A stretch of DNA of 42,039 bases from a virus (IMGVR_UViG_2740892429_000003), one strand, 5' to 3'. Shown: positions 32,371 to 38,544, counted from the first letter of the stretch. Made by a program: numbers and translations. Notes: a model not told the origin generated them from the sequence alone.

Positions 32371-33873
32371 GTGTCAACTTTGAGAATCGGTATGGAAATC
32401 CAAGAGTTTGTAAGTCACTATAAAAACCACCCTGTTCTATTCATTGGAACAGGATTTAGCCTACGGTATCTAGAAAACTCATTTAGCTGGGATGGTCTTC
32501 TTTTGAGTGTCGCAATGGAACTAACCGGTAATGCTGAGTTTTACTACGATTTGAAAGCTGAAAGCCTAGAAGGTGACGACTATCGATATGATATCTTAGC
32601 TACAAAACTTGAAGATATTTTTAATAAAAAGCTGGCAGAAGATCGTAACGGTAAGTTCAAAGACATCAATGATGTTTTCTATGAGCACATGAAAAAAGGG
32701 AAAAAACTAAGTCGATTCAAAATTTATTTAACTTCAATACTTAAAGACCTAAAGATAAAAGAGTCAATGATGGAGGAAATAAACAGCTTAATAAAAACAA
32801 GAAAAAACATAGGCTCCATCATTACAACAAACTACGACCAACTCGTAGAGAACATCTTCGAATTTAACCCACTGATTGGTAACAACATTCTTTTAAGTAA
32901 CCCATACGGTTCAGTTTACAAAATACATGGCTGTGTTAGTGATCCTAACAACATAATTATCACAGGTGAAGACTACGCAAACTTCGACAATAAATATGAG
33001 TTAATTCGCGCTCAATTACTCTCAATATTCATACACAACCCTATCATATTTATAGGGTATAGTATTAGCGATAAAAACATTAAGTACTTATTAAAAACCA
33101 TATTCTCATACGTTGACTTAAATACCGAACTTGCAAAAAGGATAAAAGATAATTTTCTTTTGGTTGAATACGAAAAAGACAGCATGTCAACTGAAATTAC
33201 GGAGCATGACATAGATATAGAAGGCATGTCTATCATAAGAATAAACAAAATAAAAACAAACAATTACAAAGCTGTATATGATGCCATCTCGGGACTAGTT
33301 TTGCCAGTATCCGCAATGGACATAAGAAAGGTTCAAAAAGTTTGGAGTACCATCAAAAGTGGTGGTGAGATAAAGGTTAAAATTACAGAAAATTTAGATG
33401 AACTTCGCAATGATGAAATGGTCATTGCTGTTGGTTCAGAAAGAACCGTACAATATGTTTATCAAACAAAATCTGAAATGATACAGAACTATTTTAAAAT
33501 AGTTGACGAAGCAAACTCTCAGCTTATCGCATTACTGAATAAGCAAACTATAGCTAATAGCGAACACTTTCCAATATACGCTTTTAGTTCTATCTGCCCT
33601 GAACTAGAAAATACCGAGACATACAGAAAACGGCAGCTAGATAAAATCATTGGTAACCTTTCTCGAATTAAAACATGTAAGAGTGATGCTGTGTCTATTG
33701 ATGAAATACTAAAAGAAACGAAAGAGTATAAAGTTGCTAACACGATTATGTATTGCGTACTAAACGATACTATTTCATTGAAACAACTACGAGATTATTT
33801 AACAAAACCAGGGCATAAAATTGATACCCAATACAGGCGACTTTTATGCTTGTATGATTATTTATCATATTAA
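32371..33873 (+). CDS. SIR2-family (SIR2_2 / ThsA-like NADase motif) protein with uncharacterised C-terminal domain; candidate single-gene defence cargo
   Basis: 500 aa; GTG start with GAGG SD; motifs GTGFS (26-30), TTNYD (152-156), KIHG (184-187), FIGYS (227-231); very low GC; flanked by hairpins 32295..32315 and 33899..33921. Confidence 0.8.
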   Translation: MSTLRIGMEIQEFVSHYKNHPVLFIGTGFSLRYLENSFSWDGLLLSVAMELTGNAEFYYDLKAESLEGDDYRYDILATKLEDIFNKKLAEDRNGKFKDINDVFYEHMKKGKKLSRFKIYLTSILKDLKIKESMMEEINSLIKTRKNIGSIITTNYDQLVENIFEFNPLIGNNILLSNPYGSVYKIHGCVSDPNNIIITGEDYANFDNKYELIRAQLLSIFIHNPIIFIGYSISDKNIKYLLKTIFSYVDLNTELAKRIKDNFLLVEYEKDSMSTEITEHDIDIEGMSIIRINKIKTNNYKAVYDAISGLVLPVSAMDIRKVQKVWSTIKSGGEIKVKITENLDELRNDEMVIAVGSERTVQYVYQTKSEMIQNYFKIVDEANSQLIALLNKQTIANSEHFPIYAFSSICPELENTETYRKRQLDKIIGNLSRIKTCKSDAVSIDEILKETKEYKVANTIMYCVLNDTISLKQLRDYLTKPGHKIDTQYRRLLCLYDYLSY

Positions 33874-36239: not shown

Positions 36240-36461
36240 ATGTCATTTAAATATCGGGACAGTCCGCTTTATTACCGGGCTGCGAGGGAGGCCTTGCGCC
36301 TTGAGCAGTCCGGCGAATATGACCGGGCAGCGAAGGTCTGGGCCAAGGCTAACCGCCAGTCACGTAACGAACTGAATCAGGACTGGAGCGAACGCCGGTC
36401 TGATTTTTGTCTGATGCAGAACATGCGCGAAAAGCGTAAGGCGGTGAGCGATGACTTGTGA
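36240..36461 (+). CDS. Small hypothetical protein
   Basis: 73 aa (MSFKYRDSPLYYRAAREALR...), AGGAG SD 8 nt upstream of ATG. Confidence 0.4.
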   Translation: MSFKYRDSPLYYRAAREALRLEQSGEYDRAAKVWAKANRQSRNELNQDWSERRSDFCLMQNMREKRKAVSDDL

Positions 36462-36933
36462 GCAGACCATTCTTGACATGTGCTGCGGCTCTCGTATGTT
36501 TTGGTTCGACAAGGAGGACAAGCGCGCCGTGTTCAGTGATATCCGCGCCGAGCAGCATGAGCTTTGCGACGGTCGCCAGTTGGTTATAAGTCCGGACCTT
36601 ATAGCTGATTTCCGCGCCCTTCCCTTTGCCGATAACACTTTCCCTGTCGTCGTTTTCGATCCGCCGCACCTCGAGCGCGTCGGCGATAACGCGTGGATGA
36701 GGAAAAAGTACGGGCGGCTCAACAAAGAAACATGGCGCGATGATCTTCGCGACGGCTTCGCCGAAGCATTCAGGGTATTGCGGACCCACGGTGTACTCAT
36801 ATTCAAATGGAACGAAACGCAGATCCCGGTAAGCAATATCTTGGCGCTGACCGACGAGAAGCCGGCCATATGGCAACGAACCGGAAAAGCCGACAAAACC
36901 CACTGGGTTATTTTCGTCAAAGGTGTGGAATGA
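36451..36933 (+). CDS. Small DNA amino-methyltransferase (probable N6-adenine)
   Basis: 160 aa; motif I-like LDMCCGS followed by motif IV-like DPPH. Confidence 0.55.
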   Translation: MTCEQTILDMCCGSRMFWFDKEDKRAVFSDIRAEQHELCDGRQLVISPDLIADFRALPFADNTFPVVVFDPPHLERVGDNAWMRKKYGRLNKETWRDDLRDGFAEAFRVLRTHGVLIFKWNETQIPVSNILALTDEKPAIWQRTGKADKTHWVIFVKGVE

Positions 36934-37226
36934 TGGCCTACGAACGTGAAAGCCTTATCGAAAAGCACCTCGTCGCCGAAGTGAAAAAGGCTGGCGGGGT
37001 CGCCTTTAAGTTCGTGTCACCCGGTCGCCGCTCGGTACCGGATCGCATTGTCCTGCTACCCGGCGGTCGCATCGTCTTTGTCGAATGCAAAGCGCCAGGC
37101 AAACCACCACGGCCTGACCAGTTACGCGAGCACGAACGGCTGCGTGCGCTGGGCTTTACCGTGGTGGTATTAGATAGCAAAAATCTGGAGGGGATATTGT
37201 GCGGGGAGCCTATTACAACGAAATAG
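36930..37226 (+). CDS. VRR-NUC domain nuclease
   Basis: 98 aa from tandem ATG; PD...E-x-K signature (VPDRIVLLPGGRIVFVECK). Confidence 0.7.
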   Translation: MMAYERESLIEKHLVAEVKKAGGVAFKFVSPGRRSVPDRIVLLPGGRIVFVECKAPGKPPRPDQLREHERLRALGFTVVVLDSKNLEGILCGEPITTK

Positions 37227-38227
37227 ACCCTAACGCAGCACAATGGCTGCGTAACCTTATTGCTGCAGGTCATATCGCCCCGGGTGAAGTTGATGAAAGG
37301 AGTATCGAAGATGTCGCACCAGACGACTTGCGCGGATTCACACAGTGCCATTTCTTCGCCGGGATCGGCGTCTGGTCTTATGCTCTGCGTCTGGCCGGAT
37401 GGCCGGATAACAAACCGGTCTGGACAGGAAGTTGCCCGTGCCAGCCTTTCAGCTCGGCTGGTAAAGGCGCTGGGTTTGATGACGAGCGGCACCTATGGCC
37501 AGCACTATTCCACCTCATCAGCGAGCGACGCCCTAAGCTGGTATTTGGCGAACAGGTTGCGGGAGTCAATGCCTGGTTCGATCTTGTACAAACTGACGTG
37601 GAAGCAGTGGACTACGCCTTTGGGCTTGTCCCGTTTCCGGCTGCGGGCGTCGGTGCCCCGCATATCCGAGATAGAGCGTATTGGGTGGCCGACGCCAGCG
37701 GCGAGCGATCACAGCGGTGGCGAAAGCGCCTCAATAGCATTGAGGAAGATGTCTGGAGATCGTCGACCGTCCGGCAACACGCTACACAGCTCCCTGCGGA
37801 ATTTTGCTCACCTGGCGGGGTGGTACACCCCAACCTGCAACACAAACCCACAGCCGGAGACAAAACGCGGTCTAGAAACCTTAGCGGGACTATCCAGATT
37901 AGCGGGATGGCCGACAGTGACGACGATCGACAACAACCAAGTTCGTGCCGAGGGCGCAGCGGCCAATCATACCGAACGGGGAACGACCCTCGGCGGCGCT
38001 GCGAGAATCTGCGGCCCAATACGATTAACGGCTGCTGGGATGGTGCTGACTGGCTCCTCTGCCGGGATGGTCGCTGGCGGCCAGTTGAATCCGGCACATG
38101 CCCGTTGGCTAATGGGATTACCTCCAGAGTGGGACGACTGCGCGCCTACGGCAACGCGATAGTCGCACCAGCTGCCGCAACATTCATCCGCTCGTTTATG
38201 GAATGCGCAGGATACGACCTTATTTAA
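37199..38227 (+). CDS. DNA cytosine-5 methyltransferase (possible frameshifts in target-recognition region)
   Basis: Motif [10 protein letters not shown], motif [18 protein letters not shown], motif [12 protein letters not shown], motif X-like YGNAIVAP in this frame; middle segment is Arg/Ser-rich while overlapping frame 37260..38162 looks more protein-like. Confidence 0.65.
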
Positions 38228-38544
38228 TGCCACTCACATCTGGCATGATACCGTCCAGAAGGTAATTGCTTATATACAACGGAGCCGCCCATGGCATAAG
38301 TATAAGCATGAAGTTTTGTCCAGAAGTCCCCATAAACTAGTATTGGGGCTAAAAATTTTGGATCGCTAACCATAGATGTAGCAGGAAGCTCGAAACCTTT
38401 AGAAAGAATGTTTACCAGTGAAGGGTAATTTTCAAAATCAGTGCTATTCCCGCCCACCTCTAAAGCATCCAGTTCAAAGTCGAGCACTCCACCATTTTTG
38501 TAATACTCCGGAACAGTTAACCCTGATGTTAACAAAGTAGCCAT
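38224..38544 (-). CDS. Antisense low-GC hypothetical protein (cargo gene inside early operon)
   Basis: 106 aa; perfect AGGAGG SD 6-7 nt upstream of ATG; low GC; opposite strand to all neighbours. Confidence 0.5.
   Translation of the reverse strand: MATLLTSGLTVPEYYKNGGVLDFELDALEVGGNSTDFENYPSLVNILSKGFELPATSMVSDPKFLAPILVYGDFWTKLHAYTYAMGGSVVYKQLPSGRYHARCEWH

Follow-up and report, generated by a model that had tools for sequence, protein, structure and literature searches.

Long overlaps between genes on the same strand are regarded as very rare in prokaryotes. One C5-cytosine methyltransferase with overlapping frames, M.EcoHK31I, was reportedly described by Lee, Kam and Shaw in 1995, and the orphan C5 methylases of Bacillus phages SPR, phi3T and rho11s carry several tandem target-recognising modules between motifs VIII and IX. 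M.EcoHK31I (YGGCCR) is a heterodimer, and the whole coding sequence of its beta chain lies within the alpha gene, read in a different frame; motifs I–VIII and X lie on alpha and motif IX on beta, both chains are required, and the N-terminus of beta mediates its association with alpha (PMC2836561, PMC3404938). M.AquI is a naturally split C5 methylase of two subunits, in which parts of the small domain come from the second chain, and known C5 methylases cannot do without motif IX or the small domain (PMC3404938). The subject here is a C5 methyltransferase gene with two long open reading frames (ORFs), alpha in frame 1 and beta in frame 2, carried by an Escherichia coli prophage (IMGVR_UViG_2740892429_000003). 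The window is the whole stretch of 42,039 nucleotides (nt) that was analysed.

The likeness to M.EcoHK31I is one of architecture, compared by description: a beta ORF lies within the alpha gene but is read in a different frame, and the association role of the N-terminal part of M.EcoHK31I beta has a parallel in a conserved N-terminal region of the phage beta. M.EcoHK31I belongs to a restriction-modification pair, whereas the phage gene is an orphan and is spread over a huge family. The variable region of the phage alpha is unconstrained and predicted to be disordered, with variable, shuffled modules on beta instead, unlike M.EcoHK31I. M.AquI resembles the proposed phage enzyme in being split, with small-domain parts supplied by the second chain, but it is split once, in the variable region, so that its beta has both motifs IX and X, whereas the phage gene keeps motif X on alpha; moreover, the beta of M.AquI follows alpha rather than being nested within it. 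The tandem modules of the SPR, phi3T and rho11s enzymes resemble the shuffled modules of the phage beta, but those enzymes are single polypeptides read in one frame. Given the architecture shared with M.EcoHK31I, the best explanation, and in our judgement the probable one, is that one gene gives two polypeptides which form a heterodimeric orphan C5 methylase, beta being the small-domain or target-recognition half.

Two conserved reading frames in one gene

The original prediction had described a C5 methyltransferase gene at this position. The methyltransferase label stands, but the gene is not a simple one with a single product, as a second conserved ORF lies inside it in the +1 frame, where an ORF listing gives 300 open codons. 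No stop interrupts either frame in any intact relative surveyed, about 160 genes from phages and prophages of alpha-, beta-, gamma- and delta-proteobacteria, and the same dual openness is seen in phages of Xanthomonas, Paracoccus, Vibrio, Klebsiella, Erwinia and Burkholderia. It does not depend on how the loci were picked. Those chosen by frame 2 have both frames open in 84 of 84 cases, and where frame 1 alone was used to select 80 bacterial genomes, all intact copies have 81–99% of the gene open in frame 2 (median 312 of 345 codons, vs a median of 60 codons for the longest open stretch in the third frame). The +1 frame is open for at least 80% of the length in 137/137 C5 genes vs 3% of 535 other long ORFs from the same loci, and the C5 genes with an open frame 2 span GC contents of 0.52–0.66. 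When the window gene was shuffled among synonymous codons, a stop-free second frame was obtained with P=0.008, and a frame 1 that is stop-free across the middle with P=0.018. Judging from sequence, thousands of methylase genes in phages have the layout. The name DNA cytosine methyltransferase is borne by at least 8,000 relatives of frame 1, while frame 2 matches PHROG families of its own and, in the protein databases, over 6,000 sequences of 280–340 amino acids (aa) without Pfam domains.

The two frames also travel together. Beta was found apart from alpha in none of the approximately 160 loci and 217 phage records, and no beta module was found under a canonical, single-frame relative: all 217 phage records detected by tblastn lie in dual-frame C5 genes. 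This includes the weakest matches (Vibrio phage Marilyn, Xanthomonas phage FoX4), which likewise fall in dual-frame genes of proteobacterial phages. In one viral contig (L079, 2947–6258) the frame-2 ORF runs for 1104 codons, beyond the usual beta stop, which suggests that beta is fused there to the downstream gene.

The same map of selection emerges from codon-position entropy, calculated for 80 non-identical genes, and from the substitutions that separate 53 phylogenetically disjoint pairs; on this map the C5 gene is under a mosaic of single-frame and double-frame constraint. Expressed as observed/expected ratios for frame-1-synonymous and frame-2-synonymous changes, in that order, alpha codons 1–80 (the N-terminus) show 2.66 and 0.43, that is, selection on frame 1 only. 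Motifs IV–VIII are constrained in both frames and diverge less (1.73 and 1.08). The middle of the gene is constrained in frame 2 only (0.55 and 2.07), frame 1 being merely stop-free, and the last 45 codons of the overlap are again constrained in both (1.55 and 1.23), with the lowest divergence of all. After the beta stop, selection returns to frame 1 only (2.47 and 0.62). The two doubly constrained zones are the least diverged parts of the gene. A stretch of 139 nt near the C-terminus (38022–38160) has 82–87% DNA identity to Burkholderia and Erwinia phages, and the 87% identity between the E. coli and Burkholderia phage sequences is due to the double constraint there.

The start signals of beta are conserved as well, although they have to be written in alpha codons. 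The putative Shine-Dalgarno sequence AGGAG is made from the alpha codons for Arg-Ser (AGG AGT). The beta ATG is kept in 71/80 and 61/69 relatives in two sets, and a GGAG-type site in 53/80 and 47/69. This puts demands on alpha, since the beta ATG needs Asp encoded as GAT and followed by G, and GGAG needs Arg-Ser encoded as (A/C)GG-AGY.

At the amino acid level beta is conserved, with invariant Trp, Gly and Pro residues, and a Burkholderia phage protein that bears the label 'DNA repair protein' is homologous to it from end to end. The middle of beta consists of one to six modules with the boundary motifs W-P-T-P and L-A-G. Typing by community detection, used because single-linkage clustering had merged all modules into one cluster, distinguished at least 32 module types, which 205 proteins combine into 150 architectures; the architecture in the window is F-D-A. 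A close relative differs from the window by the insertion or deletion of one 117-nt module, exactly at the junction of LA and GWP. The C-terminus has the pattern L-N-P-x4-W-L-M-G-L-P-x-x-W, and its best alignment to M.HhaI is with motif IX (residues 273–291).

Table 1. Features of the dual-frame C5 gene and its neighbours; positions are counted from the first letter of the window
Feature	Position	Strand	Basis or remark
Alpha chain, C5-methyltransferase large domain, 342 aa	37199 (GTG)..38227	+	frame 1
Putative Shine-Dalgarno GGAGGGG of alpha	37187..37193	+	5 nt upstream of GTG 37199
Alpha motif I-like FFAGIG	37352-37369	+	sequence
Alpha PCQ	37436-37444	+	sequence
Alpha RDR (motif VIII)	about 37667-37693	+	sequence
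Alpha linker, unconstrained, predicted disordered	about 37694-38026	+	selection map, model
Alpha conserved segment	38027-38146	+	selection map
Alpha motif X YGNAIVAP	38147-38170	+	sequence
Predicted beta chain, 283 aa, nested wholly in the alpha gene	37311..38162	+	frame 2, +1 relative to alpha
Putative Shine-Dalgarno AGGAG of beta	37298..37302	+	8 nt upstream of ATG 37311
Beta leader, unconstrained	37311 to about 37436	+	selection map
Beta conserved helix and hairpin region	about 37436 to about 37685	+	overprinted on alpha motifs IV-VIII
Beta module F	37686-37820	+	module analysis
Beta module D	37821-37907	+	module analysis
Beta module A	37908-38015	+	module analysis
Beta conserved C-terminus	38016-38159	+	contains motif-IX-like segment 38082-38132
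Small class I S-adenosylmethionine (SAM) methyltransferase, 160 aa	36451..36933	+	motif I LDMCCGS 36472-36492, motif IV DPPH 36658-36669
VRR-NUC / PD-(D/E)xK nuclease	36930 (or 36933)..37226	+	PHROG 93, Pfam, RefSeq name
ANR-family (PerC-like) small regulator	36240..36461	+	NCBIfam NF033650 E=2e-20; RefSeq annotation
Convergent 106-aa ORF, PHROG 28127	38224..38544	-	stop overlaps alpha stop; outside the methylase system

Alpha and beta as proposed parts of one enzyme

Alpha carries the catalytic motifs of C5 methylases: PCQPFS (motif IV), FGEQV (motif VI) and IRDRAYW (motif VIII). It matches Pfam DNA_methylase (PF00145, E=2e-12) over aa 76–171 only, a stretch that aligns with M.HhaI 74–171, and hhalign places alpha 78–172 against M.HhaI 78–178; between them, phmmer and hhalign cover M.HhaI 74–178. 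In an AlphaFold2 model, aa 1–165 and a helix at 323–337 are confident (the helix has a predicted local distance difference test score, pLDDT, of 82), while aa 189–319 have a pLDDT of about 30. With confidence confined to the catalytic domain and the C-terminal helix, there appears to be no structured small domain on alpha. The folded part retrieves M.HhaI and M.HaeIII as top matches with Foldseek, and also DNMT2; a DNA cytosine C5-carboxymethyltransferase (8yf3) is among the structural neighbours. No motif IX was detected in alpha by Pfam or by hhalign alignment to M.HhaI. Motif X and a C-terminal helix are present, and purifying selection on frame 1 persists past the beta stop.

The N-terminus of alpha departs from the canonical motif order I-II-III-IV with an N-terminal FxGxG. 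Over 37199–37444 the order is apparently II-III-I-IV: alpha opens with AYYNEIDP, which resembles motif II of M.HhaI, and an element resembling HhaI motif I sits between motif III and PCQ. Sequence profiles align to alpha only from motif II or IV onward. On the evidence of these motifs, the order would amount to a permuted Rossmann connectivity.

In the explanation we favour, alpha would be the catalytic large domain, with motifs I–VIII, then a stop-free disordered linker and finally motif X. Beta would be translated from its own Shine-Dalgarno sequence and ATG inside the alpha gene, and would consist of a leader, the helix-hairpin region, exchangeable modules bounded by WPTP and a C-terminus resembling motif IX. 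The two would assemble into one C5-cytosine methyltransferase, to which beta supplies the small domain or target recognition, and the enzyme would methylate the phage DNA and so help it to evade host restriction. What the sequences show are the two conserved ORFs with their pattern of selection, their motifs, the start signals and the shuffling of modules; we infer translation of beta, its pairing with alpha, methylase activity of the pair, and a role of the modules in specificity.

Several points weigh against this explanation. In 10–25% of relatives the beta ATG is absent or has no Shine-Dalgarno sequence, so that the initiation site is not uniform. The alignment of the beta C-terminus to motif IX of M.HhaI is statistically weak (hhalign E=0.23), and neither beta nor its C-terminal profile matched anything in Pfam, NCBIfam, PADLOC or the PDB sequences. 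A hand-built alpha-beta-alpha chimera scored no better against Pfam DNA_methylase than alpha alone, and canonical collinearity is therefore not demonstrated. The AlphaFold2 model of beta, from an alignment of 98 sequences, has a mean pLDDT of 54, with only aa 45–120 moderately confident; it is unfit for a fold search, and a fold like that of a target-recognition domain (TRD) is thus not demonstrated. Selection in both frames also preserves alpha residues ~276–320, to which no role has been assigned. Finally, the TRD of M.EcoHK31I is said to lie on alpha, not on beta.

In a different explanation, beta is a real, selected protein that has nothing to do with methylation (an overprinted accessory, for example an anti-defence or DNA-binding protein, for which the methylase gene serves as a scaffold) and alpha alone is a complete methyltransferase. 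It is selection on frame 2 that has been shown, not the function of beta, which has no match in Pfam, the PDB or PADLOC and a mostly low-confidence model, and hypervariable, shuffled modules would also fit a protein engaged in an arms race. Yet alpha has no structured region between motifs VIII and X and no motif IX, while known C5 methylases need motif IX and the small domain (PMC3404938). Within M.HhaI, motif IX is the one place to which the C-terminus of beta aligns, if weakly, and in all the loci and phage records surveyed beta occurs with alpha. We hold an accessory role to be unlikely, though it deserves more weight than either of the two explanations that follow.

Programmed frameshifting, done twice, could also produce a single-chain methylase: a +1 shift past motif VIII into the frame of the modules and motif IX, and then a -1 shift back into the frame of motif X. 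This would yield the canonical order of motifs I–VIII, variable region, IX and X, and database proteins that switch frame do exist (P0009, P0011, P0015, P0017). However, frameshifting leaves unexplained the openness and constraint of frame 2 upstream of motif VIII, the lack of stops in frame 1 across the middle, and the conservation of the Shine-Dalgarno sequence and ATG of beta; neither junction shows a slippery heptamer or a stop-codon context, and the chimeric proteins switch at differing positions, as random indels would. It was rejected on these grounds and is very improbable. Still less credence can be given to three ordinary single-product genes with frame 2 as a compositional by-product. 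RefSeq does annotate frame 1 only, high-GC genes often have long shadow ORFs, and a few of the control ORFs (3%) reach 80% openness. But frame 2 is open in every one of the 137 C5 genes across their GC range, the middle of the gene evolves as coding sequence of frame 2 and not of frame 1, and beta has invariant Trp, Gly and Pro residues and conserved start signals; the control of 535 ORFs and the synonymous shuffles rule out chance or composition as the source of the second ORF.

The heterodimeric methylase encoded by alpha and beta in the window may be one case of something broader. We put forward, as a tentative and rather doubtful extension, that the whole proteobacterial phage family is an obligate two-chain enzyme, whose out-of-frame specificity subunit is a tandem array of recombining target-recognition cassettes. 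By analogy with the Bacillus phage enzymes, the hypothesis that such alpha/beta enzymes are multispecific may also be considered.

Genomic setting and neighbouring genes

The window is prophage DNA of E. coli. A prophage integrated beside yfhL in E. coli 21KM1392 (NZ_CP151067.1) is 100% identical to the region, and prophages in 13 other complete E. coli genomes match it at 99.7% identity. On the plus strand the order is DUF2800, DUF2815, a SIR2 protein, a family-A DNA polymerase, a 67-aa ORF, the ANR-family regulator, the 160-aa SAM methyltransferase, VRR-NUC, the 'DNA cytosine methyltransferase', the convergent 106-aa ORF, an SNF2 helicase and an integrase. The last 11 nt of the regulator gene are also the first of the small methyltransferase gene. 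The convergent ORF is found in only 1/160 related C5 loci. The SIR2 protein (493 aa, SIR2_2 domain; window 32392–33873, plus strand) matches the PADLOC candidate defence system PDC-S25 with E=5e-157, and its gene lies in a low-GC island (0.33–0.40) with DUF2815 on one side and the DNA polymerase on the other; it is probably a prophage-borne defence gene.

The original prediction treated the small methyltransferase, VRR-NUC and the C5 gene as a cluster. Its gene models agree with the RefSeq annotation of the identical prophage, and the overlapping stops and starts are there in the sequence: ATGA (or TGATG) between the small methyltransferase and VRR-NUC, and 28 nt between VRR-NUC and the C5 gene. 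The LDMCCGS and DPPH motifs were located as described, the methyltransferase and nuclease labels are borne out by family searches, and the genes are co-directional and tightly packed in a replication-module operon. As no restriction gene adjoins the methyltransferases, the orphan anti-restriction role proposed for them is a reasonable default from established knowledge. What does not hold is the cluster as a functional unit. In a survey of gene context around C5-gene relatives in 80 viral contigs and 80 bacterial genomes, VRR-NUC adjoins the C5 gene in 11 of the 160 loci (directly upstream in 9/80 viral contigs and 2/80 bacterial genomes) and the small methyltransferase in 1 of 160, which rules out a methylase-nuclease-methylase unit. 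Nor did the suggestion that the nuclease is part of a modification function survive, as VRR-NUC travels with replication genes and no tie to methylation was found. The trio are ordinary, already annotated prophage genes, and the small methyltransferase and VRR-NUC are independent neighbours of the C5 gene; both fit among phage orphan methyltransferases and the VRR-NUC nucleases of PolA/SNF2 modules, with nothing unusual in them.

The small methyltransferase matches PHROG 954 ('DNA methyltransferase', E=6e-85) and PADLOC MTase_II (E=1e-72), and in Pfam only Methyltransf_11/25, at a borderline level. No relative was found in the PDB, and database names are generic. It has an FxGxG-type motif I and a motif IV of the form (D/N/S)PP(Y/F/W/H), as amino-methyltransferases do, the 'amino-methyltransferase' label depending on the DPPH motif alone, and the dual adenine plus cytosine methylation of the original prediction is a supposition. 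Its 160 aa leave no space for a TRD. Other E. coli prophages of this type have DUF7446, DUF4406 or no gene in its place, and the gene is variable cargo outside the C5 system. Relatives with 45–60% identity occur in phages of Streptococcus, Listeria (A118), Enterococcus, Gordonia, Porphyromonas, Vibrio and Acinetobacter, and these sequence comparisons indicate a family of small TRD-less methyltransferases that is very widespread in phages and unusually conserved across phyla. A haloarchaeal virus has a relative with 35% identity.

VRR-NUC scores 18 bits against Pfam VRR_NUC (PF08774), under the cut-off of 23.8 bits, and matches PHROG 93 'endonuclease' with E=6e-32. It carries a D...E-C-K motif (PDRIV...FVECK), and is paired with PolA/SNF2-helicase replication genes also in Paracoccus phage KLEP18-1 and Xanthomonas phage FoX4. 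By its motif and family matches it would fall into an ordinary category, a replication/recombination nuclease of the replication module.

Annotation record and significance

The RefSeq bacterial genomes annotate alpha only. In contrast, the RefSeq record of FoX4 (L170, 879–1728) and several Burkholderia phage records (phiBtTUL1a, L003, 1351–2694) list the nested beta frame alone and call it 'DNA methyltransferase', 'DNA repair protein' or 'putative metabolic enzyme'. The nested ORF appears as 'Mte8-like protein' in phage K1ind1 and in B. thailandensis, and as a second 'DNA methyltransferase' in PhiXhv-18. A literature search for a paper analysing the overlap found none beyond the 'Mte8-like protein' label and the M.EcoHK31I precedent. 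With RefSeq/PGAP calling frame 1 only in thousands of genomes, and some phage records frame 2 only, a conserved gene is systematically missing or misnamed. Since both frames are open, indels in the C5 gene leave a product that is not truncated. The database proteins P0009, P0011, P0015 and P0017, which are close relatives, switch frames at four positions and stay long ORFs.

There are practical consequences. Recoded expression of the annotated ORF would destroy beta and could yield a dead or non-specific enzyme, and the assignment of methylation motifs to prophage methylases of this kind must reckon with beta. A family-wide overlap in which zones constrained in one frame and in both are cleanly set apart, combined with the exchange of cassettes, suits the study of how overlapping genes persist. 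If the proposal is true, the pair would be among the longest (about 850–1000 nt) and most widespread same-strand overlapping genes known from bacteria and their phages. It would then be open to a phage to rearrange its methylation specificities or add to them while leaving the catalytic chain as it is, that chain needing only that the region of the cassettes be free of stops in its own frame, and a cassette-based specificity subunit would be a compact means of tracking diverse host restriction systems.

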